From Candidatus Aenigmatarchaeota archaeon (GTDB lineage Archaea > Aenigmatarchaeota > Aenigmatarchaeia > GW2011-AR5), in the NCBI GenBank assembly GCA_016187335.1, contig JACPJW010000001.1, positions 512,001-576,000 on the forward strand: DNA of 64,000 nt. The letters run 5' to 3'. The translations under genes and the position numbers were made by a program. Under the pieces are notes generated by a model. The model did not search any database. It was not told the DNA's origin and saw only the letters and a list, made by a program, of their open reading frames with translations. Shown here one piece after another: positions 1,865-63,601 of the stretch; the stretch's first letter is position 1, and every line of letters starts with the position of its first letter.

Positions 1865-2158
1865 TCAATATCCCAGTTCTCTCAAAATTTTTCCTGCAGC
1901 TTCATCAGACGTGAACCCATGTGAATTTTCAATCAGCCTGCCGTTTGACCCTTCATAAGTGATAGAAAAGCCATCATAGATTCGCTCTATGGTAACTTCT
2001 TCTTCAGGCTTCCCGTCCCTATTTCTCGTAAACGTAGTCCCCAGCCTGTTCTCTCTTCCCGGAACCCGTTTCTCAGCAAGTGAACTTCCAAGTTTCCCAG
2101 CGGCGTTTTTACCACCTTTCTCCAAAATCGTTTTGATTGAACTTTTTGAAAAGTTCAC
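1865..2158 (-). CDS. Hypothetical protein, start uncertain (GTG 2158 or TTG further in)
   Basis: Non-overlapping part of the 1865..2323 ORF; the first ~55 aa of the called ORF overlap the upstream gene and are probably spurious. Confidence 0.45.
   Translation of the reverse strand: MNFSKSSIKTILEKGGKNAAGKLGSSLAEKRVPGRENRLGTTFTRNRDGKPEEEVTIERIYDGFSITYEGSNGRLIENSHGFTSDEAAGKILRELGY
2130..2157 (-). repeat. Type A hairpin module
   Basis: Minus strand TGAACTTTT-C-AAAAAGTTCA followed by ATCAAAAC; matches copies at 10953, 13031 and 42897-42925. Confidence 0.8.
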
Positions 2159-2172
2159 CTGATTAATGGCAA

Positions 2173-2814
2173 TCAGCAGAGTCTTTCGTAACTGGAGCAC
2201 AATATCTGCTGGACTTTTTCCCTTGTCTGCAGGCCTTCGTATTTCGTTCCGTTTATTACTATGGCAGGCGTGGCGTTGACCTGGTAGTTTGCCATGAGAA
2301 GCCTTATGATAGGCTCCTCCCACTCCCTGTTGAAGGCAAATACGCTTATGCTTTCGTTTGAGCGGTAAACAAGGTAGTCAAGGACCCTTCCCTGTTCCCT
2401 CGATATTTCCGATTCATCAAAGAAAAATATGACGCGGGGGGTTGTTATGTTGCACTGCTCTTCCTGGACTTCCGAGAAGAACCAGTACCTCATCAGCGAT
2501 ATTACGTACTGTTTCTGCAGCGTTTTCGCTTCTTCCTTGGGGATGTCGCCGATGTCAAATTTCCTCCCCAGATCGACCTTTCTTTTTATGACGTCCGGCA
2601 GCCTGTAGCCTATGTAGTCGCAGGCATTCGTGTTTTTTATCAGCGACAATTCCAGTTCAAGGCTCTGGAAATCAAGGAGGTCATTCTGCAAAGTCCTCTG
2701 TATTTCCTCTGTTCTTGAGGCTGTTATTTTTGAGCCTATGAAAAGCCCCGAGACGAAAACCAGCGAAGTTATCAGGAACGCAATAAGGTATTTCTTATCC
2801 ATGTTAAAAATCAC
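2173..2814 (-). CDS. N-terminally anchored protein with C-terminal thioredoxin-like fold, no CxxC
   Basis: TM helix at N-terminus; C-terminal YQVNATPAIVINGTKYEG resembles the cis-Pro region of thioredoxin folds. Confidence 0.5.
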   Translation of the reverse strand: MIFNMDKKYLIAFLITSLVFVSGLFIGSKITASRTEEIQRTLQNDLLDFQSLELELSLIKNTNACDYIGYRLPDVIKRKVDLGRKFDIGDIPKEEAKTLQKQYVISLMRYWFFSEVQEEQCNITTPRVIFFFDESEISREQGRVLDYLVYRSNESISVFAFNREWEEPIIRLLMANYQVNATPAIVINGTKYEGLQTREKVQQILCSSYERLC

Positions 2815-2832
2815 TCCATGATTTTTACACCT

Positions 2833-2851
2833 CAGAAACCTTCGGTTTCTG
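2833..2851. repeat. Single type C-like hairpin
   Basis: CAGAAACC-TTC-GGTTTCTG; covarying twin CAGAAAGC-TGC-GCTTTCTG at 32750-32768. Confidence 0.65.
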
Positions 2852-2907
2852 CAGGTATCAGCACCACATCATATTACAGTTAATTTAGGCAGTCCGATAC
2901 CTCCATC

Positions 2908-4107
2908 TTACCACTTCTTTTTTGTTCTCAGCATCTCCTGCGTGAAAGCCGCTATCCAGAGGAAAAGGTTTATGAAAGGGTAAACAATCATGTAGAGGGC
3001 GTATTCAAAGGGGCTTATTTTTTCCTTTATCTGACGCTCGCTGACTTTCAGTATGAGAAGGAACGTTGCAAACAGCGTCACAACGAAAAATGTGAAGGGA
3101 TTTATAAAATTGAAACTGGCCGTGCCGAAAAAATACAGGAAGTCGTAGCCGACAAGCTTTATATCAATGATATTTTTAGCCAAGGCAAGCAGGAAATCGT
3201 AGATTCCGAGCACGAGAAACGGGCTTGTGACAGCCAGAAGTATGTACTGTATGGGGAGTATGAAAATCCCAAGGTCACCATGCTTTTTTGAGAAGAACAT
3301 GTGCGAATATTTTTTTGTGTTGTAAATGTGCCCGCGATACCATCGCATGCGCTGGTCAAAAAGGTCGTGCATTGTTTTTGGCACCACGGTATAGGCGTAA
3401 TCCTCTGCCGTATTTTCTATCCTGTAGCCGTTGTCTTTCAGGCGAAGCCCTATCTCAAGGTCCTCCGTCAGGTTGTCCTCGTCAAAGCCCCCCAGTTTCT
3501 TCACTATTTCCGTTTTATAAAGCGCAAATCCCGGGGTGTAATACAATGAATTCAAAAAGCTCATCAGCTTTCGCGTGAAGGAAGCTATCATATACTCAAT
3601 TTTCTGGATTCTTTCCACAAAGTTGCGGGGTTCCACAGGCTTTATGACTGCTATGACAGCCGCGGCATCACTGGAAAAATAAGCCATCATGTTTCTCAAT
3701 GCGTTTTTTGACAGGGACGTGTCGGCATCAATAAAACCGAAGAATTTGCTGTTCACTGTTGAAAGGCCGGTATTGAGCGCGGCTGCCTTCCCCCGGTTTT
3801 CCTTTCTTATGTACCTTATGAAAGAATATTTTCTTGACAGTCTTTTGCCTGCTTCAGCTGTACTGTCCGTAGAGCCGTCGTCCACGATTATTATTTTCAG
3901 GCCCGGATAGTCCTGGCCTATCAGGGATTCCACGCAGTTTTCCAGATGATGCTCTTCGTTGTGGGCAGGTATGATCACTGACAATGAAGGCAGTTTTTTT
4001 AGGGATTTTCTTTTCGTTTCCTTGTTTCCAAGGAAAACCAGAAGCCAGAAAACCGACACGAAAAGCGACACGTAAACTGTTGTGTAGAAAAGTATGTCGT
4101 CAATCAT
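2908..4107 (-). CDS. Processive family 2 glycosyltransferase (PgaC/cellulose synthase-like)
   Basis: IPAHNEE, VDDGSTD, DADT, TED and QRMRW (QxxRW) motifs plus C-terminal TM helices. Confidence 0.9.
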   Translation of the reverse strand: MIDDILFYTTVYVSLFVSVFWLLVFLGNKETKRKSLKKLPSLSVIIPAHNEEHHLENCVESLIGQDYPGLKIIIVDDGSTDSTAEAGKRLSRKYSFIRYIRKENRGKAAALNTGLSTVNSKFFGFIDADTSLSKNALRNMMAYFSSDAAAVIAVIKPVEPRNFVERIQKIEYMIASFTRKLMSFLNSLYYTPGFALYKTEIVKKLGGFDEDNLTEDLEIGLRLKDNGYRIENTAEDYAYTVVPKTMHDLFDQRMRWYRGHIYNTKKYSHMFFSKKHGDLGIFILPIQYILLAVTSPFLVLGIYDFLLALAKNIIDIKLVGYDFLYFFGTASFNFINPFTFFVVTLFATFLLILKVSERQIKEKISPFEYALYMIVYPFINLFLWIAAFTQEMLRTKKKW

Positions 4108-5085
4108 CTAGCGGACCTCTTTCTTTGTGACTTCTCTTAAAACGACGGTAGCGTAGCTGCCTGGCGGCAGGGTAAAGTTTAGCAACGCTTTGTTGCCATT
4201 AATCGTATATTTTAAATAAGTTTTAATAAATGCCTTTCTTTCGCCGCCGGAGCACGACAGCCTGAGCTTGCTGACCATGAAATCCTTCGGGCTGATTTTT
4301 TCCCTTTTCATTATTTCGGAGGACTTTCCAGGCTTCTTTGTATTGCAGCCAATCAGCGGTATGAAGCCGCTGAAGTACTTCCCTTTCCTCACATAGCCAG
4401 CCAGCGTTTCATTGAAAATCCACGACTGGTAGGCGTTTACAAAGAACTTTAGGATTTCTTTTTTAACGTGGAATATTTCCTTGTAGTCTTTGCCATAAGA
4501 CTTGTTTATCAATTGCAAAGCTTTGTCAAACTTTCTTTTGACGATAAGCCGCCCTATGGCATGGTTATTGCCGCCGGCTCCGAAACGCTGCGGCCCGAAA
4601 TAATTAGGAAAGCCCCTTTTGTTTATTTCTGCAATGACTTTTTGCAATTTCTTTGCATTACATCCGTGCAGGGTTATTATAAATTCGTTGCCGATAAGGT
4701 TTCCTTTTGACAGCATTTTGTCGGAGGTTCCCGCCTTAACCAGTTCAATGCCGTTTTCTTTGAAGTCGCTCCCCCCTTCCATTGTTATGTGCTGTTCCGT
4801 TACGGCTTTCTTGTCTTTGAGGCCGGCAAAGCCTATTTTGCCTGCGCCGAACCTTTTCCTCAGCAATGCCAGGGCTTCGTGCGTCGTCATGTTCCTTTTT
4901 CTCAGCAGGAAAAGGTCGTACTTTCCTTCTTTCCTGCTGACACCGCCTGCCGTCCTGTACTTTGCAAAGTACTTCCTGTGGATGGTTTCCTTTACAATAA
5001 AATCTTCGGGCGATTTTATTTTTCCACCCGTTCCTGCTGACCTCGTCCAGTAAGGAAGCATGAGAATACTTCGGGCGCAGTTCAT
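4108..5085 (-). CDS. truD: tRNA pseudouridine(13) synthase TruD (start probably ATG 5061)
   Basis: FAGLKDKKAVTEQ catalytic motif, PNYFGPQRFG, F.LPPGSYAT. Confidence 0.92.
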   Translation of the reverse strand: MNCARSILMLPYWTRSAGTGGKIKSPEDFIVKETIHRKYFAKYRTAGGVSRKEGKYDLFLLRKRNMTTHEALALLRKRFGAGKIGFAGLKDKKAVTEQHITMEGGSDFKENGIELVKAGTSDKMLSKGNLIGNEFIITLHGCNAKKLQKVIAEINKRGFPNYFGPQRFGAGGNNHAIGRLIVKRKFDKALQLINKSYGKDYKEIFHVKKEILKFFVNAYQSWIFNETLAGYVRKGKYFSGFIPLIGCNTKKPGKSSEIMKREKISPKDFMVSKLRLSCSGGERKAFIKTYLKYTINGNKALLNFTLPPGSYATVVLREVTKKEVR

Positions 5086-5426
5086 TTAAGCAGCGGCAGC
5101 GAGCCCGTGACCCTGTTTATTACGCCGTCTTCGTGCGGGCCGATGCCCAGAGCGGTTATCGTTCCGGGCTTCGTTTCCGTAAGGCCCGCATCAGAAATTA
5201 GTGCATGAGGTATCCTGAGATGCTCGCATTTTTCCTTCAGCAGCAGCAGCTCTTTAAGGTCTTTTGCCTTTAGTATGACTTTCTTTTCTCCTTCTTTGTT
5301 CCATAATCCGATTATCTTTTTGTCGGAGCGCTTGTACGCCTCCAGCGATGCGTGGGCGCATTGCGCGGCTGTTTTTCCTTTGCTCAGCTTCAGGTCAGCT
5401 CTTACAACAATAACCTGCTTGTACAT
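5082..5426 (-). CDS. pth2: Peptidyl-tRNA hydrolase Pth2
   Basis: KQVIVVRADLKLSKGKTAAQCAHA, DAGLTE..PGT.T.LGIGP. Confidence 0.96.
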   Translation of the reverse strand: MYKQVIVVRADLKLSKGKTAAQCAHASLEAYKRSDKKIIGLWNKEGEKKVILKAKDLKELLLLKEKCEHLRIPHALISDAGLTETKPGTITALGIGPHEDGVINRVTGSLPLLK

Positions 5427-5451
5427 GGCTAATTAATGTATAAGCTGGTTT

Positions 5452-6039
5452 TTAGCTTTTGGCTGCCGCGGCCAGAATCCTCTGGACAGCTGATATGTTC
5501 GTCAGAACAGCGAGGAGAATGATTGCGTACGACAAATAAAGCGTGCTGAAATGCGCGGCCACTATGCCGGCAAACAGCAGAATAAGCCGCTCGGCCCTCT
5601 CAAGAAAACCTCCCTTTATTTCAGCAATTTCTTTCTCCTTTGCCGCGGCCTTCGCGTAAGTAGTCATCATGCTTCCGAAAAAGTAAATGAACAGCCAGAA
5701 ATATGAAGGAAAAAGCAAGCCCGGGATGTTTACGAACAGGAGCCCGATGATAATTATTCCTTCAACGTACCTGTCAATGATTGTATCCAGGTAAGCTCCC
5801 AGTTTTGTGACGTTGCCCGTGACCCGCGCCACGCTTCCGTCAATAAGGTCTATGAACGATGCGATAATGAAAAATGCCGCTGAAAGAAGGAACTGTTCCC
5901 TGACTAGGAAATAAAGCGCCGCAAAGGTCGGCAGCAGCGTGAGCAAAGTCCACTGGTTCGGGCTCAATCCCAAACGGCTGAATATTATGCCGACCTTTAC
6001 GCTGAGTTTGTTGAACCTTTCCCTTTGTCTGTACAGCAT
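5452..6039 (-). CDS. CDP-alcohol phosphatidyltransferase, probable archaetidylinositol-phosphate synthase
   Basis: DxxDGxxAR...GxxxDxxxD signature; directly downstream of ino1. Confidence 0.88.
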   Translation of the reverse strand: MLYRQRERFNKLSVKVGIIFSRLGLSPNQWTLLTLLPTFAALYFLVREQFLLSAAFFIIASFIDLIDGSVARVTGNVTKLGAYLDTIIDRYVEGIIIIGLLFVNIPGLLFPSYFWLFIYFFGSMMTTYAKAAAKEKEIAEIKGGFLERAERLILLFAGIVAAHFSTLYLSYAIILLAVLTNISAVQRILAAAAKS

Positions 6040-6111
6040 ATAACATGCTCCTTTTGATTCTTCAATGCACAGGAAGCGTGTAACGAATCCATGTCCATTG
6101 AATCTCGAGAA

Positions 6112-7212
6112 TTACCTTTCCCTTGAACCCTTGATGAATTCTTCCACCATTATGCGCGCCACGTCGTCAGGAAACTGCTGCGGCGGGCTTTTCATTGTGT
6201 AGGCAGAAATGGAATGCAGCGGCCCGCTTATGCCGCGGTCCAAAGCAATCTTGCAGCATCTTACGGCGTCTATAGCGGAGCCGGCTGAATTCGGCGAATC
6301 CTCAACAAGCAGTCTTAGTTCCAGTTCTACGGGCACCCCGCCGAATTTGCTGCCTTCTATCCTGAGGAAGCATATCTTCCTGTCGTTAAGCCAGGGAACG
6401 TAGTCGCTGGGGCCGATGTGTATGTTTTCTTGAGCAAGCTTATGCGGAAGAATAGATTGCACTGCCTGCGTCTTGCTTATCTTTTTTGAAGCAAGCCTGT
6501 CGCGGGCGAGCATGTTGAGAAAATCCGTGTTCCCGCCCACGTTCAGCTGGTACATCCTTTCTATCTTGACGCCCCTGTCTGCAAAAAGCTTGGCGAGCGT
6601 GCGATGAACGATTGTGGCTCCCACCTGTGATTTTATGTCGTCCCCTATAACAGGCAGCTTTGCGTCGGAGAATTTTTTCTGCCATTCGGGGCTTGACGCA
6701 ATGAAGACAGGCATGCAGTTGACCAGGGCAGTCTTGGCTTCCAGGCATGCATTGGCATAGTATTTCGCAGCCTCCTCGCTCCCCACGGGCAGGTAATTTA
6801 TCAGCATGTCAGCCTTTTTTTCCTTCAACACATCCGCCACGTCAGCGGCCGCTTCCATGCCGACTTTGAACGTGCTGCTTTCCGGGTAGTCCTTCATATG
6901 CGAAGCAACGCCGTCAAGAACAGGAGCCTTCATTACTTCTACGCTGAGGTTCGGCACGTCGCGCTGGAAAACATAGGTGCAGTTGGGCTTTGCAAATATC
7001 GCTTCACTGAGGTCTTTTCCTACCTTCCGCGCATCTATGTCAAACGCGGCAACAGGTTCTATGTCAGAAATCCTGTACCCTCCAAGGACATTGTGCATGA
7101 GCCCGGGCACGGCATCGTCATTGCTCGCTATGTCCTTGTAGTAAAATATGCCCTGGACAAGCGATGACGCGCAGTTCCCGACGCCTGCAATAGCGATCCT
7201 TATTTTCGGCAT
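6112..7212 (-). CDS. ino1: myo-inositol-1-phosphate synthase
   Basis: [41 protein letters not shown] motifs. Confidence 0.96.
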
Positions 7213-7216
7213 AGTG

Positions 7217-7260
7217 TATTTTACGTATGTAAAATATATATACTTTACATTGGTAAAATA
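7217..7260. promoter_or_regulatory. Two 20-bp palindromic operators in the ino1/padR divergent promoter
   Basis: TATTTTAC-GTAT-GTAAAATA (7217-7236) and TACTTTAC-ATTG-GTAAAATA (7241-7260). Confidence 0.65.
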
Positions 7261-7288
7261 TTAAAACCGCTGCGCTGAATGATTAATA

Positions 7289-7651
7289 ATGACAAGGCAC
7301 GGAAAGAGCACCGGAAAGGGATTTTACGGTCCTGATGCTTCCGACACGCCTGAAATGCGGCGCCTGAAGAGAATGCTTACCACGGAATCCCTGTGGCTTT
7401 GGATATTAATTTTGCTGTCAAGGAAACCGAGGCATGCTTACGTTCTAAGAAACGAAATAAGAGATGAATTCGGGTTCATGCCGGGCAACGTGACATGCTA
7501 TAAAGTTCTTTATTTTCTCAAAAGAGGAAACTACGTAGGCATTAAAGAAGAAGGGAGAAAGAAAATATATTACATAACAGAAAAAGGCAGGAAAGAGCTG
7601 TCAAAAGCAAAGAAATTTCTGGAAGAAACTTCCGAAGAATTATTTGACTGA
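7289..7651 (+). CDS. PadR-family winged-helix transcriptional regulator
   Basis: ILILLSRKPRHAY..., Y..L..L...GY, RKKIYYITEKGRKEL. Confidence 0.88.
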   Translation: MTRHGKSTGKGFYGPDASDTPEMRRLKRMLTTESLWLWILILLSRKPRHAYVLRNEIRDEFGFMPGNVTCYKVLYFLKRGNYVGIKEEGRKKIYYITEKGRKELSKAKKFLEETSEELFD

Positions 7652-7665
7652 ATAAGAGGATTATA

Positions 7666-8154
7666 ATGGTATTCGGGATATCGGCGCTTGTGAGCCTTGT
7701 AAACGCATACGGATATCCCGCCATATTCGTTGTCGGCTTTCTGAGCAGCTTCACGTTGTTCATCCCTTCGCCGGCTTTTTTTGTCGTCTTCCTTTTTGGC
7801 GCCACGCTCAACCCTGTTGCCCTGGGCGTTATTGCAGGCGCTGGAGCGGCGCTGGGTGAAACGACGGGATATATAGCCGGTTACGGCATCAGCAAACTGG
7901 CGAAAAATCAGAGGAAAAAGCTGGCTGAAATACGGAAGCTGATCCACAAATACAGCCCCGAAGTTGTCATATTCCTTTTTGCCGCCACGCCGCTGCCCTT
8001 TGATTTTGTCGGCATATTCTGCGGCACGATAAATTTTGACAGGAAGAAGTTTTTTGTTGCCACGCTCCTTGGAAAGATTGTCAAATTCATTTTCATTGCT
8101 TATGCCGGCTTCTACGGGCTTCACTGGGTCCTGAACTACGCCGGGCCTGACTAA
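7666..8154 (+). CDS. DedA/VTT (SNARE-associated) membrane protein
   Basis: FTLFIPSP, GAALGETTGY.AG, FAATPLPFD..GI..G, LLGKIVK. Confidence 0.85.
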   Translation: MVFGISALVSLVNAYGYPAIFVVGFLSSFTLFIPSPAFFVVFLFGATLNPVALGVIAGAGAALGETTGYIAGYGISKLAKNQRKKLAEIRKLIHKYSPEVVIFLFAATPLPFDFVGIFCGTINFDRKKFFVATLLGKIVKFIFIAYAGFYGLHWVLNYAGPD

Positions 8155-8226
8155 TTATCCTCTTCTTTTCTCAGCTTCGTCTATCGATTATTCTTTCAAT
8201 CGATACATTCCTTTTCTGTTTATGAT

Positions 8227-8304
8227 AATATTTTTCTTTCCGTTAACGCTTTCTAATATTTTCTTTTCCGCGAACGCTTTTCTTTTCAAAAGAAAAGGGT
8301 TCTA
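8227..8304 (-). repeat. Type B hairpin module starting at the carS stop codon, with a tandem duplicate of its right arm
   Basis: TAGAAC-C-CTTTTCT-loop-AGAAAAG-C-GTTC-GCGGAAAA, then a second AAAGCGTTAACGGAAAGAAAAATATTA. Confidence 0.8.
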
Positions 8305-8817
8305 CCACGGGTGCTTTTTCAGCTTCAGTATGTAGGCTACGTTGTTGGTTGCCCAATGCACGACAGGCGTCATGATAAAGAGGAGAATAATCATGCTTAT
8401 TTCAGGCCTGTAAGCCGGCGAAGAAATAATCAAAGCCGCTATAAGGAATGTAAGCTGGTCAAACAGCGGAAAGTGCTGTCCCCTGGGTATCCCGAATCTC
8501 CTTTTTATGAAAGACCCCCCCACATCCCCGATAAGTGCGCCTGCGCTTAATAACAGAACCAGAGTTAAATTCAGTTTCACGAGATTAAGGTTTGCCGGCA
8601 GGTAATCCTGTGCGTATATCTGCGCCAGTCCGAACAAGGTCCCTATCGCGATGCCGCCGAACGTGCCTTCCCACGTCTTTCCGTCGCCCAAAAGCCTGTT
8701 TTTGCCCAGCCTCCTGCCGAAGTCCAGCGGCCTCTTGCCCTTGAGGAGAACCGGCGAGGCATTGGCTATGTAGGCAGGAGCTATGAACCACAAGGACTGC
8801 AAAATAAGCGAGAACAT
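8302..8817 (-). CDS. carS: CDP-archaeol synthase CarS (DUF46)
   Basis: PAYIANASPV, PLDFG, LGDGKTWEG, GD..GSFIKRR..I.RG, DQL.F, LKLKKHPW. Confidence 0.93.
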   Translation of the reverse strand: MFSLILQSLWFIAPAYIANASPVLLKGKRPLDFGRRLGKNRLLGDGKTWEGTFGGIAIGTLFGLAQIYAQDYLPANLNLVKLNLTLVLLLSAGALIGDVGGSFIKRRFGIPRGQHFPLFDQLTFLIAALIISSPAYRPEISMIILLFIMTPVVHWATNNVAYILKLKKHPW

Positions 8818-8869
8818 TTGTTAAACTATATCCGATGTTATTAAAATGCTTTGCCCGAAAGGAATAACC

Positions 8870-10057
8870 ATGAGAATAGCGATGTTCACAGATTCTTACA
8901 GTCCCCAGATAAACGGCCTTGTGACGTCTATAGATGCTTTTTTGAAGCAATTGAGGAAAAAAGGGCATGACGTCCACGTCTTCGCGCCGCGCGTGCCCGG
9001 TTACCATGATAAGGACAGGAGAATACACCGCTCCGCTTCCTTCGAGTTCGCGCCGTACAAGGAGTACAGGATAGCCGTGCCCGCCGCCATAAAGGGCAGT
9101 TTCGATATCGTCCATGTCCACAGCCCGTTTTCCATGGGGTTTTCCGGCATTGCTTATGCAAGAAAAAACAGAATCCCGGTTATCGGGACGTTTCATACGC
9201 TGTTCCCTGAATACGGGCATTATCTCATAAAATCAGAGAAGCTGCTGCGCCTTTTCAGGGGCGCCTACAGAAAAATAAGCTGGTCGTACCTGCGGTGGTT
9301 CTACAGCAAATGCGATTACATCACCGTGCCTTCCGGGCATGTAAAGAAACAGATGATAAAGCACGGGATAAAAAGGCCTGTATACGTCATTCCAACGGGC
9401 ATAGAAGTGAAAAGCCTGGGGAAAGGCAGGAAATCGCTGCGCAGGAAGCACGGCTTTGCCGGCGAGAAAATAATACTGCACGTAGGGCGTCTGACTAGGG
9501 AAAAAAACATCCTTTTCATCTTGCGCTCGCTGGAAAAACTGCTCAGAAAAGAAAACGCCGTCTTTGTCATCACTTCAGACGGGCCTTACAGGAGTGAGCT
9601 GGAAAGAGAAGCAGTGAAGCTGGGGCTGCAGAAGAAAGTGAAGTTCACGGGTTATGTGGACAGCGAACGCCTTGGGGAATTGTACGCCATAGCCGATGTT
9701 TTTGTCATCGCGTCAAAAACGGAGACGCAGGGCATAGTCCTTATAGAAGCCGTTGCGAATAAGCTGCCGATAGTCGCGCTGAACGCCCCGGTTACAGGCG
9801 ATTTCCTGAAAGAAAACGAATACGGAATTGTCGCCAACAGCAAAAATTTCGCCGGCAGGGTCTCCGCTGTCCTGAAAAGCGGAAGGAAAGCAGAGGAAAG
9901 CGTCAAGAACGCCCCTGTTGTGCTGGAAAAATACAGCGCTGAAAGCTGCGCTGATGAGATGCTGAAGTTATACGAAAAAGCAGCCGGAAAAATGACCTCT
10001 TCAGCGGTTAATCATAGTCGGGATAGCCCTGCTTCAGTGCGCCGCCCTTCAGCATGA
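8870..10057 (+). CDS. Family 4 (GT-B) glycosyltransferase
   Basis: MRIAMFTDSYSPQINGLVTS, HVHSPF, GRLTREKN, ETQGIVLIEA. Confidence 0.92.
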   Translation: MRIAMFTDSYSPQINGLVTSIDAFLKQLRKKGHDVHVFAPRVPGYHDKDRRIHRSASFEFAPYKEYRIAVPAAIKGSFDIVHVHSPFSMGFSGIAYARKNRIPVIGTFHTLFPEYGHYLIKSEKLLRLFRGAYRKISWSYLRWFYSKCDYITVPSGHVKKQMIKHGIKRPVYVIPTGIEVKSLGKGRKSLRRKHGFAGEKIILHVGRLTREKNILFILRSLEKLLRKENAVFVITSDGPYRSELEREAVKLGLQKKVKFTGYVDSERLGELYAIADVFVIASKTETQGIVLIEAVANKLPIVALNAPVTGDFLKENEYGIVANSKNFAGRVSAVLKSGRKAEESVKNAPVVLEKYSAESCADEMLKLYEKAAGKMTSSAVNHSRDSPASVRRPSA

Positions 10058-10718
10058 AAGCGGCCGAGGCTTTTATGTAGAAACTTACAATGCCCAGCCA
10101 TCCCATCTTTCCTATTCTTCTTGAAGAGGTGCGCACCTTTATGTCGTGGAAAAAGACGAAGCGCCTGTGCTTGTGCATCCTTTTCGCCAGCTCGTGGTCC
10201 TCGTTTGTTTTGAGAGCGGGATTGAAGCCGCCTACGGCGTGGAAGTGCTCTTTCCTGTAAATGAAGCAGCTGCCGGCTGTCATCGGCATCCCTGCTTTTG
10301 TCAGAAGGCGCGGTATGTAATTTATCCAGTCATAGATTTTTCTTGTGTACGGCCCGCCGTCGTAGCATTCCAGGACGCATACGCCGCCGCCAATGTCCCT
10401 GCTGGAAAATTTTTTCTCTATCTTGTCCAGAAAGTTTTTGTCAAAGCGCACATCGGCATCGGCAAAGATAAGTATGCCGCCTTGTGCGCATTCCGCTCCG
10501 GTGTTGCGGGCAAGGCCGATGCCTTTCCTTGGTTCCTGGACAAGCAATCCGTGCTTTTCAGCTATCCTGTGAGTTCCGTCTTTGCTCAGGGTGTCAACAA
10601 CTATTATTTCGTAATCGCTGCGCCGCTGGTTCTTTATGGATTTTATACATTCCTCTAAATAGCTCTCTTCGTTCCGCGTAGGGATGATGAACGAAAATTT
10701 CGGTTTCATGTTTTTCAT
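10008..10718 (-). CDS. Family 2 glycosyltransferase (true start 10718 or 10709; the called extension runs through the tRNA)
   Basis: IIPTRNEE, VVDTLSKDGT, ARNTGA, FADAD, NED motifs. Confidence 0.9.
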   Translation of the reverse strand: MKNMKPKFSFIIPTRNEESYLEECIKSIKNQRRSDYEIIVVDTLSKDGTHRIAEKHGLLVQEPRKGIGLARNTGAECAQGGILIFADADVRFDKNFLDKIEKKFSSRDIGGGVCVLECYDGGPYTRKIYDWINYIPRLLTKAGMPMTAGSCFIYRKEHFHAVGGFNPALKTNEDHELAKRMHKHRRFVFFHDIKVRTSSRRIGKMGWLGIVSFYIKASAAFMLKGGALKQGYPDYD

Positions 10719-10720
10719 AG

Positions 10721-10887
10721 TGCCCCCAGCGGGATTCGAACCCACGTCACGAGCTTGTTGCTTTTCCGTAGACGCTTTTGCGAAAGCAAAAGGGTCTCCG
10801 CAAGCTCGCATTCTCTTCGGATAAATTGTTATCCGAGACCTCGGAAATCTCTGATTTCCGCAGATGTCCAGGCTAAACTATAGGGGC
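10721..10887 (-). tRNA. tRNA-Arg(GCG) with two insertions: D-loop (~10815-10865, 51 nt) and canonical 37/38 intron (10756-10797, 42 nt); CCA not encoded
   Basis: Removing both inserts gives GCCCCTA TA GTTT AGCCTGGACA GAAT G CGAGC TTGCGGA GCTCG TGAC GTGGG TTCGAAT CCCGC TGGGGGC A, a complete cloverleaf. The 37/38 intron has central helix TTGC/GCAA with 3-nt bulges GGA and CAA. Confidence 0.92.
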
Positions 10888-10952
10888 AAAATTTAATATT
10901 TAATGCATCTCAAAACAACCTTTTAAATCATTTATGTGCAATTAGCGTAGTG

Positions 10953-10981
10953 GAAACTTTTCAGAAAAGTTTCATCAAAAC
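10953..10981 (+). repeat. Type A hairpin module nested in an ATTTATGT/ACATAAAT stem
   Basis: GAAACTTTT-CAG-AAAAGTTTC-ATCAAAAC. Confidence 0.8.
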
Positions 10982-11002
10982 GACATAAATGAGGTTATGA
11001 TT

Positions 11003-11161
11003 ATGAAGTGCATATCGTGCCACAAGAATCTTTTGTCTGAAGACGATTTCACGAAATTCAGCTGCCCATCGTGCGGCGGCGAAGAAATCTTAAGGTGCGC
11101 AAACTGCCGCGTGAAAGGCGTCCTGTATCAATGCACAAAGTGCGACTTTGAGGGGCCTTAG
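11003..11161 (+). CDS. Small zinc-ribbon protein (DUF1610/HVO_2753 family), 52 aa, below ORF-track cutoff
   Basis: MKCISC...FSCPSCG...RCANCR...YQCTKCDFEGP; four CxxC motifs; conserved position upstream of EF-1beta. Confidence 0.92.
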   Translation: MKCISCHKNLLSEDDFTKFSCPSCGGEEILRCANCRVKGVLYQCTKCDFEGP

Positions 11162-11191
11162 AAAAGCAGAAAGCCTTGGCAGATGATAATC

Positions 11192-11464
11192 ATGGGAAAC
11201 GTAGCTGTCACATTGAAGATAATGCCCGAATCGCCTGAGGTTGACATGGCTGGGCTCAGGAAAAAGATAGAACAGCTGTTTGAGGAGTTCCACGAGGCAA
11301 AGCTTCAGCAAATCAGCGAAATGCCCATAGGCTTCGGGCTGGCGGCGCTGCAGGTTTTGCTCGTTCTGCCGGACACGGCAGGCGGATCTGACGCTATAGA
11401 AAAGGCGATATCAGCAATAGAAGGCGTCGCTTCAGTTGAAAGCGAAGGCGTTACGCTTATCTAG
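11192..11464 (+). CDS. ef1b: Translation elongation factor 1-beta
   Basis: MGNVAVTLKIMPESPEVD...PIGFGLAAL. Confidence 0.95.
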   Translation: MGNVAVTLKIMPESPEVDMAGLRKKIEQLFEEFHEAKLQQISEMPIGFGLAALQVLLVLPDTAGGSDAIEKAISAIEGVASVESEGVTLI

Positions 11465-11512
11465 TTCACTGAATCTACTTTAAATTATTATTGAGCATAT
11501 TATCCCTTATTC

Positions 11513-11953
11513 ATGAGATATGACTTTACTCTGGATGATGGAGAAACCGTCAGCGTTGATACAAGAGAATTAAGTTACGGAGCAATTTGGAATGCGCTGC
11601 GGCTGAAAGGCAGGGAAAGAGAAGCAGCAAACAGAGTTATTGATTTGTACAATAGGGAGCCGCCGCGCCATCAAGCAGACCATTATAGGACTAGGATGGA
11701 GATAGAAAGAGCCGCGCAAAACAATAAGCTTGTAAGGAAATTGATTCATTGCAGAATTCTTGAGCTTCATTTCAAGTGGTGGCGACATCTGGTTACAAGA
11801 AGAGAAGAAAGAGGCGGAATTAGAATTGGTCCGGGACATGCAAGGCATCTCCAGGCACCGTACAGGTTGGATGTTTGGAAACTTCACACACTGGATCCGG
11901 ACTACGAACCTGAATACGAGGAATCTGAGCACGAGCCTGCACATACATACTAA
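11513..11953 (+). CDS. Orphan hypothetical protein (AT-richer than flanks)
   Basis: 146-aa ORF filling the ef1b-fen gap; no family recognised. Confidence 0.65.
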   Translation: MRYDFTLDDGETVSVDTRELSYGAIWNALRLKGREREAANRVIDLYNREPPRHQADHYRTRMEIERAAQNNKLVRKLIHCRILELHFKWWRHLVTRREERGGIRIGPGHARHLQAPYRLDVWKLHTLDPDYEPEYEESEHEPAHTY

Positions 11954-12007
11954 GCATTATAAATCTTCTTCTGCAATTTTATTGTAGTTTTCCGCTCTGG
12001 TGAAAAG

Positions 12008-13024
12008 ATGGGAATACAGATGACAAGCCTCGTCGAGGGCGAGGAAGCAACTATAGAGCAGTTCTTTGACAAGAAAATAGCCGTGGACGCTTACAACTGG
12101 ATTTACCAGTTTCTGAGCATTATCAGGCAGCCCGACGGCGAGCCCCTGAAGGACAGCAGGGGCAGGATTACTTCCCATCTGTCCGGACTGTTTTACAGGA
12201 CGATGAAGCTGATGGAAGCCGGCATAAAGCCCATATACGTTTTTGACGGCAAGCCTCCTGAGTTTAAGCGGGCTACGGCAGACCAGCGCCGTGACGTGCG
12301 GGCGGAAGCAGCGCGCGAATGGGAAGAGGCGCTGAAAAGAAAGGATTACGAGGCGGCGAGAAAATACGCGCAGCGCGCTGTCACCATAACCGGCGAAATC
12401 GTGGAGCAGTCAAAACGGCTTCTGGAGGCGATGGGCCTGCCGGCAGTGCAGGCGCCCAGCGAGGGGGAAGCTCTGTGCTCGCTTATGTGCAGGCGCAGCG
12501 ATGTGTACGCCGTCGCGACGCAGGACTACGATTCCCTGCTGTTCGGCGCAACTCGCCTTGTCCGCAACCTGTCAATTACAGGAAAGAAAAAGCGCGGCTC
12601 GGAATACATAACAATAAACCCGGAAATGCTCGTCCTGAATAAGGTGCTGGAGCAGTTGGAAATCACACAGGACCAGCTTATATTATTAGGCATCCTTATT
12701 GGCACGGACTACAACCCGGGCGGCGTTCCCGGCTACGGACCGAAAAAAGCACTGGAGCTTGTCAGGGAAAAGAAAACGCTGCATGCCGTGAAGGAAAGCG
12801 TCATCTGGGATTTTGACGTCGACATGGAGGATATCTTCGCTTTTTTCAAGAAGCCAGAGGATGCTGACTACGACATAACCTTCGGCAAACTCAGCGAGGA
12901 AAAAATCGTAAAGATGCTCTGCGACGAGCACGACTTCAGCGAGGAAAGAATCGTAAACGCCTTGAAGAAGTACAAAGAATCAAAAGGCGAAGGCCAGCGC
13001 TCGCTGGGCGGTTGGGTGAAATAG
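12008..13024 (+). CDS. fen: Flap endonuclease 1
   Basis: AVDAYNWIYQFLSIIRQPDG, APSEGEA, QDYDSLLFGA, GTDYNPGG, C-terminal PIP box QRSLGGW. Confidence 0.97.
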   Translation: MGIQMTSLVEGEEATIEQFFDKKIAVDAYNWIYQFLSIIRQPDGEPLKDSRGRITSHLSGLFYRTMKLMEAGIKPIYVFDGKPPEFKRATADQRRDVRAEAAREWEEALKRKDYEAARKYAQRAVTITGEIVEQSKRLLEAMGLPAVQAPSEGEALCSLMCRRSDVYAVATQDYDSLLFGATRLVRNLSITGKKKRGSEYITINPEMLVLNKVLEQLEITQDQLILLGILIGTDYNPGGVPGYGPKKALELVREKKTLHAVKESVIWDFDVDMEDIFAFFKKPEDADYDITFGKLSEEKIVKMLCDEHDFSEERIVNALKKYKESKGEGQRSLGGWVK

Positions 13025-13140
13025 ACCCTTTCAAACTTTTAGAAAAAGTTTGATTAAAACGGAAAGAGAAAGCGTCTGCGGAAATCTGCAAAGAGCAAAG
13101 CTCTTTGAGATGCCAGGAAGCTTTGCTTTCTGAGCAAGAA
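13022..13140 (+). repeat. Composite element: type A module inside a type B stem, followed by a type C double hairpin
   Basis: TAGAC-C-CTTTC[AAACTTTTAGAAAAAGTTTGATTAAAAC GGAAAGA]GAAAG-C-GTCTG-CGGAAA, then CAAAGAGC-AAA-GCTCTTTG AGATGC CAGGAAGC-TTT-GCTTTCTG. Confidence 0.85.
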
Positions 13141-13170
13141 GCATATTAAAAATTTAGAAATTTGCGAGAA

Positions 13171-13503
13171 TCAGACCGGGCAGCCGCATCCTCTCAGGCA
13201 GGCATCTTGCAATTCAGCGCCTGTAACGCCAGGGTATTTTTGCCCGCATATAACATCTAACCTTGTTGTTTCTCCGGGAGCTTTGTAATCCTTGACCTCT
13301 ACGTCATCTATCTTGGTTCTATCGCAGCTGTAAGCGCTCCTCAATGTCTGGCAGCCTTTTCCATAAGCCTGCTCCATCTGGATTGTTCCTGCGCCTGCGC
13401 CGAACTGGCTGCTGAACAAAGCCGCCGCCACAACAAGAACGAGCACGGCTATGGCCACGATGACTATGACATTGATAGGAAGTTCCAGCCCTTTTGAAGC
13501 CAT
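13171..13503 (-). CDS. Pilin-like protein with class III signal peptide
   Basis: MASKG|LELPINVIVIVAIAVLVLVV; Cys-rich C-terminus ending CGC. Confidence 0.8.
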   Translation of the reverse strand: MASKGLELPINVIVIVAIAVLVLVVAAALFSSQFGAGAGTIQMEQAYGKGCQTLRSAYSCDRTKIDDVEVKDYKAPGETTRLDVICGQKYPGVTGAELQDACLRGCGCPV

Positions 13504-13578
13504 GAAATCACTCTAATCTTAATTGCGTGAGGCTGTATATAAAGTTTGGTCGTCTGACGGGAAAGAAAAGTGGCATAA

Positions 13579-13905
13579 TTATTTATTTTCCGCCTTCGGC
13601 AAGGGCTGCGGGCAGAAAAGGCTGCAGCAGGTCTGGACGCACTCTTTGCCTCCCTGGGTTTTGCATTTTTCATAGTTAAGCTTGGTGCATAGCCTGACAA
13701 GCTCGGTTTCAGCGCCTTTGGTGCATTCTATGTCGTTGTTCACGTGCTTGATGCACAGGTCCCTCTGCTTGTTGAGGTCGTCGATGCTGCTTTCCGCCGG
13801 CCGGAAATTGGCATTGAAAAAGTAAAGAAGCACTGTCAGCACAAGAACTGATAGCGTAAGGACAACAATCGTTTCCAGGGTCAGCGAAACGCCTTTCCTT
13901 CGCAT
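13579..13905 (-). CDS. Pilin-like protein with class III signal peptide
   Basis: MRRKG|VSLTLETIVVLTLSVLVL; Cys-rich. Confidence 0.78.
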   Translation of the reverse strand: MRRKGVSLTLETIVVLTLSVLVLTVLLYFFNANFRPAESSIDDLNKQRDLCIKHVNNDIECTKGAETELVRLCTKLNYEKCKTQGGKECVQTCCSLFCPQPLPKAENK

Positions 13906-14028
13906 GATTATTATTTTGGTTTCCGATATATAAACAAAATCCACCATCTAAAAAATCACAAAACTCATAAATGCGGCAGAATCGGGCTTGCCTTTACTTT
14001 AACTTCTGCTTTGAGATTTATTGCTTGC

Positions 14029-17294: not shown

Positions 17295-17300
17295 GAAATT

Positions 17301-18185: not shown

Positions 18186-18186
18186 A

Positions 18187-61101: not shown

Positions 61102-61141
61102 ATGAAATAAGGCTTTTAAGTTTGCGTGGATTACACTTCTC

Positions 61142-61444
61142 ATGGACATTAGAGTAATAAATCCAGAAGTACGGAATCCAACGGAATTTTTGCCTTTCAT
61201 AGAAAGGTTAGTCGGGAAACCTGTTGCTATTTATCATCTGAACAAAGAACGGTATGGTGAAGAAGTTTCTCCGCAGGAACTATTGAATCTTCCTTCCCTT
61301 AGTAATGATTTTGGAGTGAGGGCTAGAGAAAAAAGCAAAGAAGTTTTAGGGAATTTGCGTTATGTAAAGCCGTCTGACGGCAGGAATGGTATTCTTCAGT
61401 ACAGAGGAAGATTTGGCGATATCGAAGCTGTCTGGCTTTCTTGA
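61142..61444 (+). CDS. Orphan protein, paralog of 60778..61101
   Basis: FLPFIERLVGKPVAIY...VLGNL...DGRNGI. Confidence 0.62.
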   Translation: MDIRVINPEVRNPTEFLPFIERLVGKPVAIYHLNKERYGEEVSPQELLNLPSLSNDFGVRAREKSKEVLGNLRYVKPSDGRNGILQYRGRFGDIEAVWLS

Positions 61445-61446
61445 CT

Positions 61447-63312
61447 TCACTTGAACCTGATAGTTTCCAGATTCTTCGGCGCCATGGTTTCCACCTTGAA
61501 TATCCTGTGCAGCGTTTTCGCAAGGTCAACGCAGTTCATGTTGTCGCCGTGGTTCGTCATTATCCTTTTCGGCCTTGCGCTGAGGTTGGACAGATAGGAC
61601 AACAGCTGCCTCTGGTCCGAGTGGCCGGATAAACCCTGCACGGTTGCTATTTCCATTTTCAGTTCAAGAGTTTTCCCGTTCTCCATCTGTATTTCGCGCC
61701 ATCCCTTCTGGATGCGCCGTCCCAGGGAGCCTTCTGCCTGGTAGCCCACGAACAGGAGGGTGTTCTTCGGGTCGCCGGCAAACTGCTGCAGGTACTCCAA
61801 AGCCGGCCCGCCCATCAGCATGCCCGAGGTTGCTATGACAACGCACGGCTCTTTCGTGTTGAATATCTCCTGCCTTTCCTTGGAAGAACCGATGCCGCGC
61901 AGCCGCGGGTCTATGAAAGGATTCTTTCCTTTGTGAAGGATTTTTGTCTGCATTGCGCGGGACATGAATTCCGGATAAGCTGTGTGGATCGCCGTCGCGT
62001 CCCACACCATGCCGTCCTGGTATATGGGCACGTCAATGTCCGTGTCAGCGAGGATTGCAACGACATCCTGCCCTCTTCCCACGGCAAAGCTGGGTATCAG
62101 GACCCTTCCGCCCCTCTCGATAGTTCTTTTCACCTCGTCAGCCAGGAACTGCTCCCCGTCCCTGTGGGAAGGCAGCGAATCCGAAGAGCCGCCGTAGGTG
62201 CTTTCTATTATCACAGCTTCAATTCTCTGGTAATCCGTCGATGCCCTTTCAAAAAGCTTTGTCGTCTCGTATTTTATGTCCGCAGTGTACAGCAAATTGA
62301 AAAGGCCCTCGCCGACGTGGATATGCACAGAGGAAGAGCCCATTAAATGACCGGCATTCTGCAGCGTTATTCTCATGTCCGGGGTTATGTCCGTCACTTC
62401 TCCGTATTCCAGCGGGACGCAGTGCTTCACCATGTCTTCTATGGCTTTTGAGGAATAAGGCGCTTTCTTATTCTCGCGCTGGCATATGCCGATGTAATCC
62501 AATTGCAGCAGGACAGAAAGGTCTCTTGTAGGACGGGTGCAGTACATCGGCCCTTTGTAGCCGTATTCGTACAGATATGGAACTAACCCGCAATGGTCGA
62601 GATGGGCGTGTGAAAGTATGACAGCGTCCAGGTCCTGTATGTGGAATTCCGGCGCGTCCAGATATGGGTACGGCTTTACGAAAGAAGAAACGGAAACGCC
62701 GCAATCCAGCAGGACCCTGCTCTCCGGCGTCTGCAATAACATGCAAGACCTGCCCACTTCGCGGAAAGATCCCAGGCACGTCAGCCGGACCCAGTCAACG
62801 TCGCCCCTTTCAGCGTATATCTTCTTTCCGATGTTGTTGAGGAATTTTTTCCTGTAGTCGACTTCCTCGTGAAGCATCTTCCTTACGCTTTTGACGAGAA
62901 CAGAATCTATAACGGGCGCCCTTTTTATGTCGGGAGTCCAGAAAGTTTTTTCCTTTATCGTGTTCAGCGTCTCGCCGTTCTTGCCTATTGCAAGCCCGGG
63001 CTTTTCTGCGTGTATGACAACCTTGGCGAATTCCGGCTCAAAATAAATGTCCTTTATTTCAGCTTCCTGAGGCACGGTTTTTCTTATGAATTCCTTGGTC
63101 TTTTCTTCTTCCACGAGTATTGAGGGGTCCGCCCTTACCTCTATCCTTTTCTTCACCCTGTTCACGATGCTTCTTATGAGCTCTGTGCACGTCCGGAAAA
63201 AATCCCTGTTCTTCGTGTAAAGGATTATTTCGCTGCCCTCGTAGACGGTGTCAGAAATCTCAGCTGATTTCGGTATGCTTTCCTTTATCTCTTCCATAAC
63301 GTCGCTGTTCAC
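61447..63312 (-). CDS. beta-CASP ribonuclease aCPSF1 (FttA) with KH domains
   Basis: KPGLAIGKNG, EVGRSC, LSHAHLDHCG, AGHLMGS, LSGHSD. Confidence 0.95.
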   Translation of the reverse strand: MNSDVMEEIKESIPKSAEISDTVYEGSEIILYTKNRDFFRTCTELIRSIVNRVKKRIEVRADPSILVEEEKTKEFIRKTVPQEAEIKDIYFEPEFAKVVIHAEKPGLAIGKNGETLNTIKEKTFWTPDIKRAPVIDSVLVKSVRKMLHEEVDYRKKFLNNIGKKIYAERGDVDWVRLTCLGSFREVGRSCMLLQTPESRVLLDCGVSVSSFVKPYPYLDAPEFHIQDLDAVILSHAHLDHCGLVPYLYEYGYKGPMYCTRPTRDLSVLLQLDYIGICQRENKKAPYSSKAIEDMVKHCVPLEYGEVTDITPDMRITLQNAGHLMGSSSVHIHVGEGLFNLLYTADIKYETTKLFERASTDYQRIEAVIIESTYGGSSDSLPSHRDGEQFLADEVKRTIERGGRVLIPSFAVGRGQDVVAILADTDIDVPIYQDGMVWDATAIHTAYPEFMSRAMQTKILHKGKNPFIDPRLRGIGSSKERQEIFNTKEPCVVIATSGMLMGGPALEYLQQFAGDPKNTLLFVGYQAEGSLGRRIQKGWREIQMENGKTLELKMEIATVQGLSGHSDQRQLLSYLSNLSARPKRIMTNHGDNMNCVDLAKTLHRIFKVETMAPKNLETIRFK

Positions 63313-63513
63313 TGTACCACCTGCTGGCTTGTCTTGTTAAAATTTCGGATTATTTTCTAATTAGATAGAGTTTTGCTAAAGCGTGTTTTGTGGACGCTTG
63401 AACAAATCTAAAGATTGAAGTTTTGGATCAATTGTTGTTGATTATTAAAAAATTATCAGGGATTTTCGGGTGAAATCTTTCAGGGCGGCAAAGTTAATTT
63501 CGCCACAAACCTC

Positions 63514-63601
63514 TTTTGATGCGCGAAGAACATATGTTCTTCGGCATTGCCAAAATGCCTTATGCATTTTGAGCAATTGAACTTTGGAGCAGCAAAGTTC
63601 A
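63514..63601 (-). repeat. Three-hairpin element beginning at the psmB stop codon and ending in ATCAAAA
   Basis: TGAACTTTG-CTGCTC-CAAAGTTCA, CAAAATGC-ATAAG-GCATTTTG, CGAAGAAC-ATAT-GTTCTTCG-CGC-ATCAAAA. Confidence 0.72.

Follow-up and report, generated by a model that had tools for sequence, protein, structure and literature searches.

The 1.0-Mb genome of a groundwater archaeon of the Aenigmarchaeota (DPANN), 90.8% complete, carries about 200 small hairpin-plus-tail DNA modules of three recurring types, which lie between genes as well as inside tRNA and rRNA genes and are probably a family of small, non-autonomous, proliferating elements supplying the cargo of introns. The recurrence of the three types is confirmed, and the evidence supports the proposal of the initial annotation, made on one window (the whole stretch of 64,000 nucleotides analysed here), that a dispersed, stacking, non-autonomous family is common to tRNA introns and intergenic DNA. 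How archaeal tRNA introns arrive at non-canonical positions is an open question, and the modules are a rare handle on how such introns arise; in the lineage of the host, what fills the introns can be recognised as the small element multiplying between genes.

Module types, anatomy and distribution

A scan of the whole genome for more copies gave about 108 of type A, an 11-bp hairpin followed by an ATCAAAA tail, 44 full copies of type B, a hairpin with a fixed C-C mismatch and a CGGAAA tail, and about 35 loci of type C, a double hairpin; by chance, none would be expected. In the window, modules of the kinds described lie where the initial annotation had placed them, and the exact type A pattern matches four times against none in 100 shuffles, while type B tails give five true copies against 0.24 expected. 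The loci are as follows, in coordinates of the window.

2131-2157, minus: type A (hairpin and ATCAAAA tail), 15 nt past the stop of the gene 2173-2814 (minus) and sense to it; exact pattern match
8237-8252, minus: solo 3' half of type B (3' arm and CGGAAA tail, no 5' arm); tail match
8259-8303, minus: type B, starting at the TAG stop of the gene 8302-8817 (minus); tail CGGAAAAGAAAATATTA
10721-10887, minus: tRNA-Arg(GCG) gene with two introns, from hand splicing and ARAGORN; partial RF00005 match
10756-10797, minus: intron at position 37/38 of this tRNA-Arg, one type B (C-C mismatch hairpin, tail ACGGAAAAG)
10815-10865, minus: D-loop intron of this tRNA-Arg, one type C (two hairpins), from hand splicing
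10953-10980, plus: type A between divergent genes, in sense with the plus-strand gene that follows it; exact match
13022-13084, plus: type B directly after the stop of the gene 12008-13024, its loop holding a type A at 13032-13059
13077-13145, plus: type C double hairpin, joined to the B tail
42755-42930, minus: 175-nt stack of modules in the 5' region of the gene 42345-42743 (minus)
42764-42869, minus: outer type A holding an inner type A, which holds a type C at 42794-42856
42874-42889, minus: solo 3' half of type B within the 42755-42930 stack
42896-42923, minus: type A within the same stack; exact match
63514-63601, minus: long-loop variant of type A, starting at the TGA stop of the gene 63599-64225 (minus)

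The variant at 63514-63601 has two extra hairpins between its stem and its tail (ATCAAAAGAG) and is followed by a TGTGG Shine-Dalgarno-like end. Composites are also found repeatedly: the B-C arrangement of 13022-13145 recurs in the genome, with copies in other genera 83-95% identical, and the insertion of modules into each other's apical loops, as the initial annotation had noticed, is seen in a composite of C inside A that recurs at least six times genome-wide. Tandem arrays are head-to-tail direct repeats with a period of 27-30 nt and no spacers, and most copies are solitary.

In the initial annotation structure was taken to be what is conserved. The basal pairs of type A are Watson-Crick in 107 and 104 of the 108 copies (shuffle means, 29 and 45), and those of type B in 39-42 of 44 (14-25 in shuffles), with loops ranging from 1 to more than 60 nt. 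Covariation is, however, restricted to two or three basal pairs in types A and B, and the AACTTTT/AAAAGTT core, the CCCTTT/AAAGCG core and the tails are conserved in sequence too; because core sequences are identical across genera and even domains, the statement is wrong in detail. The type A core does not vary over an order, being shared by 31 of 61 genomes. Exact type A copies number 73 in the host, 21 in a genome of the same genus (G001, 56% complete) and 0-7 in 59 other relatives, and the motif occurs also in other archaeal phyla, in some bacteria and in giant-virus and virophage contigs, in which at least 120 copies stand against 4 in the reversed control (at least 30-fold enrichment).

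No described family was matched, in agreement with the initial annotation: Rfam gave no family at gathering score in the window, none on bacterial or archaeal copies and nothing beyond a T-arm fragment in the tRNA region. In addition, a bacterial copy had no BLAST match in phage or plasmid collections, and the letters of the motif retrieved only unrelated primers from the full-text literature.

Introns of tRNA and rRNA genes

Modules of types A, B and C make up tRNA introns, and types A and B are also present in the 16S rRNA gene. The two introns of tRNA-Arg(gcg) correspond exactly to a C module and a B module; unspliced, the gene is missed by ARAGORN, and after both introns are spliced out by hand it is recognised as a canonical tRNA of 74 nt. 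Likewise, tRNA-Pro(cgg) is recognised as canonical (73 nt) after removal of its module-built introns; the hand splice of a tRNA-Ser is off by one base. In the 37/38 intron of tRNA-Arg, GCAA after the B tail pairs with exon TTGC as the central helix of a bulge-helix-bulge (BHB), and folding by hand gives a relaxed BHB motif with the tail looped out, while the T-loop intron of tRNA-Pro, also folded by hand, forms a perfect hBHBh' motif using a third arm. A and B modules are found in the D, anticodon and T loops of many tRNAs, with near-identical T-loop introns in three tRNAs each. The 16S gene spans 3276 nt against a model of 1478 positions, with about 1.8 kb of inserts. As for the type of splicing endonuclease, whose search the initial annotation had proposed, the genome holds one alpha-type EndA of 202 aa, closest to the alpha4 enzyme of M. 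jannaschii (1a79) and without a paralogue.

By a heuristic and incomplete list of tRNA spans, which contains a few false spans in coding DNA, 24 of the 44 B copies and 18 of the 108 A copies lie inside tRNA spans, 41 of these 42 in sense orientation, and about 80 of the 108 A copies lie outside. A third arm, scored by a pairing-run measure with a cut-off of 9 bp or more, is present in 9 of 16 intronic type A copies but in only 9 of 79 other A copies, and the mean third-arm pairing run of non-tRNA copies equals the shuffle mean. Most intergenic type A copies lack the third arm and are not whole introns.

Filled and empty sites, and placement along transcripts

The occurrence of filled and empty sites among relatives, put forward by the initial annotation as a check, is borne out. 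At 40 module clusters with both flanks collinear in G001, an A-like hairpin is kept in only 4, all of them tRNA loci, and about 30 of the 40 flank-alignable sites are shorter in G001 by roughly the length of a module; when copies of G001 are mapped the other way, 6 of 15 meet an empty site in the host. Empty sites in one relative do not always tell gain apart from loss. Within the window, the convergent gap at 13025-13170 is empty in five other genera, and the site of the 42755-42930 stack is empty in G001, where the flanking TATA boxes are conserved. Some orthologous empty gaps measure only 0-12 nt, and one module (cluster 111) is inserted upstream of a pre-existing T-rich hairpin. At clean filled/empty junctions no target-site duplication of constant length was found, only microhomology of 0-3 nt. 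Two congeneric species are set apart by filled and empty sites, and one tRNA intron at least, the type A intron of tRNA-Ser, occurs in the host but not in G001, so that intron birth becomes testable. Among sequencing runs, this DNA is listed only for groundwater DNA metagenomes. In four runs, contigs over window positions 1-20000 break at modules, where the depth is raised; the strain of the second study is essentially identical and therefore yields no information on alleles.

Nearly all copies are sense to local transcription (49 against about 6 in co-directional gaps). Type A starts within 3 nt of a stop codon in 25 of 80 copies, and modules begin 2-4 nt past tRNA discriminator bases and 2 nt past the 16S 3' end. 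Several copies lie less than 40 nt ahead of the next start codon, too close for a promoter to fit in between, which means that transcription runs through them, and an efficient terminator is ruled out for copies within operons. Type A was also rejected as a promoter: promoters in the genome have TTTAAAT at about -30 as their signal, and the positions of type A show no peak relative to start codons. A 53-nt variant between genes which abut in G001 (TGAATG) brings its own GGTGA Shine-Dalgarno, and one type A copy is an in-frame insert in a protein gene (cluster 13). This is how a genome of 1 Mb, with very little space between its genes, accommodates about 200 inserts: they are spliced out or directly follow stop codons, some with their own ribosome-binding site.

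Origin of the modules and comparison with known systems

The explanation that we consider rather likely is that of small, non-autonomous elements which proliferate and furnish introns with their cargo. Each module is a hairpin whose core is conserved and whose two or three basal pairs are free as long as they stay complementary, followed by a fixed, A-rich 3' tail. Within tRNA and rRNA genes, BHB introns would carry the modules as their cargo; the hairpin, or the 5' arm paired to the downstream third arm, would provide the outer helix of the bulge-helix-bulge, and cutting at the BHB by the single alpha-type endonuclease would let the insert leave the RNA and make it harmless. Outside RNA genes, they would build up where a transcribed insert is tolerated, namely right behind stop codons and in leaders, in the trailers of tRNAs and 16S rRNA, and in the apical loops of earlier modules, and some intergenic copies bring their own ribosome-binding site. 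The analysis shows that the copies belong to one family, lie in sense, covary, make up introns and nest, and that congeneric genomes have gained or lost them; the copies would have originated by copy-and-paste, insertions in tRNA genes would have founded new introns, and some copies may have been co-opted.

Against this reading, neither a Y1_Tnp, TnpB or RVT_1 gene nor RNase III was found in the 90.8% complete genome, and clean junctions show no target-site duplication. The sense bias and the adjacency to stop codons could reflect selection for a role in RNA, and the identity of the type A core across genera and domains suits a conserved function no less than mobility. The hairpin-plus-tail might be a 3'-end, processing or stability mark which arises wherever it is selected and punctuates polycistronic RNAs, trailers and introns, read by a conserved RNA-binding protein or nuclease as in the "hairpin rule" of Mimiviridae; starts just past tRNA discriminators and the 16S 3' end, a core conserved over an order and further, and the enrichment in giant-virus and virophage contigs also speak for it. 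Against it, most orthologous sites are empty in the congener and in other genera, some of them gaps of 0-12 nt that need no signal, the module of cluster 111 was placed before a hairpin already there, copies within operons cannot terminate efficiently, it is not obvious what a signal would gain from nesting or tandem arrays, and no RNase III domain was found in the host genome (90.8% complete), so that such a signal is a possible but rather unlikely explanation. The near-constant sense orientation (also within tRNA and rRNA genes), insertion points set by RNA structure (the D, anticodon and T loops of tRNAs, module apical loops, places just past a stop), spacerless tandem units which would fit rolling-circle copying of a small circle, and junctions without target-site duplication are what might be expected if introns excised by EndA and ligated or circularised by RtcB rejoined RNA loops or 3' ends and were fixed in DNA by RNA-templated synthesis or repair. 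This route is improbable, since no reverse transcriptase gene (RVT_1) was found in the host genome (90.8% complete), most intergenic copies lack the third arm, and the motif is present also in bacteria and eukaryotic giant viruses, which lack splicing of the EndA type; EndA is not known to catalyse the reversal. A wider version, in which the modules are RNA-borne mini-introns released by EndA, re-ligated into RNA loops or 3' ends and copied back to DNA, one family founding tRNA and rRNA introns and colonising mRNA spacers, with the hairpin-plus-ATCAAAA of archaea, bacteria and giant viruses as a cross-domain class, is likewise a speculation that we think has little chance of being right.

REPs are imperfect hairpins with a 5' GTAG/GGAG foot recognised by RAYT. 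The short imperfect palindromes of the host, abundant between genes and often behind them, resemble these, and on the GTAG, GGAG and ATAG starts of B copies the initial annotation based one of its candidate drivers, an HUH Y1 transposase. In this explanation such an enzyme would move archaeal REPs on single-stranded DNA via the foot. Some B copies do start with GTAG or ATAG, but no fixed foot was found before the core among the 44 full B copies compared; the bases preceding it are the covarying basal pairs, and those starts are intron-flanking bases or an upstream stop codon (TAG, TAA or TGA in 8-9 copies). Neither Y1_Tnp (PF01797) nor a TnpB gene was found in the host genome (90.8% complete), while six control genomes matched Y1_Tnp; the search for mobility enzymes covered Y1_Tnp, TnpB-type and RVT_1 only. 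As, moreover, tandems are direct instead of inverted REPIN pairs and orientation tracks transcription, the REP/RAYT explanation is largely refuted and very improbable. Hardly more credible is a DNA-level regulatory site, with the palindrome as a promoter element or the operator of a dimeric DNA-binding protein: some copies are located 13-50 nt ahead of a start codon and the core is a perfect inverted repeat, but the promoter signal is a different one, positions show no peak, the variable loops and compensatory basal pairs point to a folded strand, and copies are present inside tRNA and rRNA introns.

Proliferating elements, the reading preferred here, share features with several known systems. 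Like REPs, REPINs and BIMEs, the modules are short palindromes in tens to hundreds of copies, mostly behind genes, transcribed in operons and variable between relatives, but they are without RAYT or a conserved GTAG foot, form direct tandems and not inverted doublets, are sense-oriented and occur also as tRNA and rRNA introns. Like Rickettsia palindromic elements and MITEs, they are small, non-autonomous palindromic inserts tolerated in genes and RNA genes, but they are much shorter (about 30-60 nt), have no terminal inverted repeat and target-site duplication signature, and have no cognate transposase among Y1_Tnp, TnpB-type and RVT_1. They differ from CRISPR repeats because tandem modules abut without spacers and most are solitary. 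In Mimiviridae, hairpins behind genes are 3'-end signals (PMC4402537), and these AT-rich palindromes right after stop codons resemble the modules, whose type A motif is over-represented, as an exact match, in contigs of giant viruses and virophages; the viral hairpins are, however, cut by a viral RNase III, which the host genome lacks, and the copies in the archaeon have an orientation and a fixed tail, turn over fast and build introns. Finally, the transposed BHB tRNA introns of Thermoproteales are described, in the accounts of Fujishima et al. 2010 given in PMC3239211 and PMC4090602, as near-identical short introns that recur in several tRNAs of a genome and at differing positions, cut by the endonuclease at the BHB and gained recently. 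Related introns in different tRNAs and positions (D, anticodon and T loops) are common to both, but in the present host the family is genome-wide and lies for the most part outside RNA genes, this DPANN archaeon has one alpha-type EndA in place of an (alpha-beta)2 enzyme, and its modules are defined hairpin-plus-tail sub-units which nest and stack.

Architecture and copy number of the modules

The dispersed hairpin modules described in the initial annotation are present, and their extent is greater than was seen there. Type A is an AACTTTT/AAAAGTT hairpin followed by an ATCAAAA tail, type B a hairpin with a C-C mismatch and a CGGAAA tail, and type C a double hairpin. A loose search of the source genome for AACTTT..AAAGTT gave 121 matches, about 108 of which carry the ATCAAAA tail two bases past the stem, and the window holds four exact type A copies versus none in 100 shuffles. 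The two bases outside the type A core are free yet complementary, being Watson-Crick paired in 107 and 104 of 108 copies versus shuffle means of 29 and 45; four pair types are used at these basal positions and the next position outward is unpaired. A long-loop variant is characterized by the loop GCTGCTCC, the tail ATCAAAAGAG and then a Shine-Dalgarno-like end, TGTGGTGA. In addition, type A units form arrays, and a fourth recurrent module, missing from the initial list, often lies 3' of the A tail (C1 and C2 are the two contigs of the source genome):

C2:419562-419650, 76478-76523, 803329-803372 and C1:15075-15123: two or three type A units joined head to tail without spacers, repeating every 27-30 nt
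C2:81063, 260748, 350735, 716295, 815417, 176416 and others: GACCTTCTCAGAGGTC-type hairpin 3' of the A tail, with compensatory stem changes

Type B is represented in the genome by 44 full copies of the form N3-CCCTTT...AAAGCG-N3'-R-CGGAAA, in which the C-C mismatch is fixed (CCC opposite GCG) and the three basal pairs covary (Watson-Crick in 39-42 of 44 copies versus shuffle means of 14-25). Many tails continue as GAAAATATTA, and solo 3' halves consisting of the 3' arm and the tail are also present. One match to the B pattern is a false positive, falling within a candidate archaeal RNase P RNA (C2:205798-206071, minus strand; 48 bits, E 5e-13, under the Rfam gathering score). Type C occurs at about 35 loci (nhmmer profile) as two 8-9 bp hairpins joined by the linker AGAT(G/C)CC. 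At least six other genera have several copies in each genome that are 83-95% identical to the window type C, whereas identity of the flanking genes is only about 68%. Moreover, B-C composites recur in the source genome and in other genera, and C nested in the A loop recurs at least six times.

Modules as tRNA and rRNA introns

The source genome (1.01 Mb in two contigs, 47% G+C, 90.8% complete) is found in groundwater metagenomes only, and the nearest matches of its splicing endonuclease, EndA, are proteins named Candidatus Aenigmarchaeota, so the host is taken to be a DPANN archaeon. The genome encodes one EndA, a 202-aa alpha-type protein without a paralogue. Run without introns, ARAGORN recognizes just two clean tRNAs genome-wide, neither of them in the window; nearly all tRNA genes are therefore interrupted. 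Candidate tRNA genes range from 100 to 340 nt and contain as many as three introns, located in the D-loop, the anticodon loop and the T-loop. Heavy tRNA gene disruption in DPANN lineages has already been tied to the alpha4-type EndA with an L3 loop (PMC5829648).

The tRNA-Arg(GCG) gene (window 10721-10887, minus strand) becomes a canonical 74-nt tRNA after removal of two modules, whose splicing restores the tRNA:

Window 10815-10865, minus strand: C module, intron in the D-loop
Window 10756-10797, minus strand: B module, intron at position 37/38

Likewise, tRNA-Pro(CGG) is canonical once two A-based introns are removed. By hand folding, the 5' arm of the A hairpin in its T-loop intron pairs with a third arm, a segment 3' of the tail, and the whole gives a textbook hBHBh' structure made of the T-stem, two AAT bulges, TTCA/TGAA and an 11-bp outer helix. 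In B-type T-loop introns the third arm matches perfectly and the C-C mismatch stays in the proximal arm. In other introns, the outer helix is formed by the module's own hairpin, with the tail looped out. Among intronic A copies 9 of 16 have the third arm, versus only 9 of 79 among the remaining A copies. Judged by a heuristic and incomplete list of tRNA spans, 24 of 44 B and 18 of 108 A copies lie inside tRNA genes, 41 of these 42 in the tRNA sense, and a further ten A copies within 60 nt of tRNAs start 2-4 nt past the discriminator base.

The 16S rRNA gene (C2:239678-242953, minus strand; L261:1179-4454 in our label for the matched stretch) spans 3276 nt against a 1478-position Rfam model, which means about 1.8 kb of intervening sequence. 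The modules within it are as follows:

C2:239936: B module
C2:241954: B module
C2:242356: B module
C2:242582: A module

One of the B modules falls in the universal 515-530 region, and another A module lies two bases 3' of the 16S 3' end. As a separate observation, at C2:738991-739060 (minus strand), upstream of tRNA-Met(CAT), the first 16 nt of this tRNA, GCCGAAGTGGCTCAGT, are present in two copies with an A module between them, so that a leftover of 5' exon fragment plus module precedes the gene; this may be the trace left by an insertion or by recombination.

Turnover and distribution

Both flanks of every module cluster were mapped to 80 contigs (449 kb) of G001, a genome of the same genus that is 56% complete. 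Among 40 collinear clusters an A-like hairpin is present in G001 at only four, all of them tRNA loci, and at about 30 the G001 sequence is shorter by roughly one module length. A 53-nt A variant, which brings its own GGTGA upstream of the start codon, separates two genes whose ends touch as TGAATG in G001; a 77-nt A-plus-hairpin insert stands in place of an 8-nt spacer; and a 54-nt C module has 2 nt of microhomology and flanks 95% identical to G001. Between conserved TATA boxes, G001 lacks the 175-nt nested stack of window 42755-42930; it also lacks the A-type intron of tRNA-Ser, a gene that in G001 carries another small insert at a different place. Conversely, of the 15 G001 copies that were mapped, 6 have an empty site in the source genome. 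Furthermore, the 146-nt convergent gap at window 13025-13170 (B containing A, then C) measures 0-35 nt in five other genera. No constant target duplication was seen at the junctions in the filled/empty comparisons with G001. In metagenome contigs matched to window 1-20000, the modules coincide with breaks in the assembly and with raised depth.

Exact matches to the A pattern number 73 in the source genome, 21 in the 56%-complete G001 and 0-7 in each of 59 further genomes of the order, so that 31 of 61 are positive, and the reversed control gave none; 12 of 20 inspected copies in relatives are in tRNA introns. A prokaryote-wide scan with one genome per species found it in Methanosarcinales, ANME-1, Methanocellales, Micrarchaeota and Woese-, Pace-, Iain-, Nano- and Altiarchaeota, often in tRNA introns, and in Clostridia, Aminicenantes and Cloacimonadota 3' of a G+C-rich hairpin. 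The bacterial repeat families have the A unit directly 3' of that hairpin and read ...CCCGCA, then an A unit, then CTTT (stretches L088 and L095 of an Aminicenantes MAG; L062, L064, L091, L096 and others of Clostridia MAGs). One Aminicenantes genome has several hairpin-plus-tail copies per 8 kb, and the bacterial copies had no match in Rfam, phage or plasmid collections. In IMG/VR the pattern is present in at least 120 stretches versus four for the reversed hairpin control; the matches to the pattern include a virophage (L275, Sputnik-type capsid genes) and a giant virus (L283, poly(A) polymerase). The exact type A motif with its tail is frequent in giant-virus and virophage contigs of very high AT content (L262-L341), often several per contig and also in tandem arrays of 29-38 nt period. 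The viral and bacterial motif may reflect either homology or convergence.

Gene context and possible origins

Judged by our own gene predictions, co-directional gaps contain 49 A copies in sense and 12 in antisense, six of the latter in opposite-strand tRNAs. The sense stop codon lies within 3 nt of the conserved AAC in 25 of 80 non-tRNA A copies, where it often forms part of the stem. For about a dozen copies the next start is fewer than 40 nt downstream; transcription therefore runs through them within operons, which rules them out as efficient terminators. A role of the type A hairpin as promoter signal was discarded, because TTTAAAT, about 30 nt upstream of start codons, holds that role. 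An A-like unit also lies in frame within a 414-aa open reading frame (C2:18589-18620), where the same-genus genome is 21 nt shorter; it looks like an insert tolerated inside the protein.

The modules are probably best read as a non-autonomous, proliferating hairpin-plus-tail family. Introns of tRNA and rRNA genes take their cargo, and the outer helix of their BHB motif, from its members, which also settle at tolerated, transcribed positions. A serious rival, to which we nevertheless assign a clearly minor chance, is a conserved role as RNA signal, for which the sequence conservation across lineages and the strict orientation speak. Mimiviridae post-gene hairpins are 3'-end signals (PMC4402537), which together with the viral A copies keeps this conserved function alive; copies inside operons, as described, would not be efficient terminators.

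As for what moves such a proliferating family, the initial annotation proposed reverse splicing of excised BHB introns or an HUH Y1 transposase as for bacterial REPs. The latter is rejected: Y1_Tnp is missing from the 90.8%-complete genome, and the supposed REP foot (GTAG/GGAG/ATAG) of type B consists of the upstream gene's stop codon or of intron flanks, a stop codon lying 1-3 nt into the variable bases in eight copies. TnpB-type, RVT_1 and RNase III domains are missing from the genome as well, control genomes having matched in each search. Reverse splicing, by which excised introns would re-enter RNA, appears improbable. Finally, three consecutive TATTTAAATA boxes (window 42931-42975) stand upstream of the gene at 42989-43546, are conserved in G001 (L199) and agree with the genome-wide TTTAAAT promoter signal.
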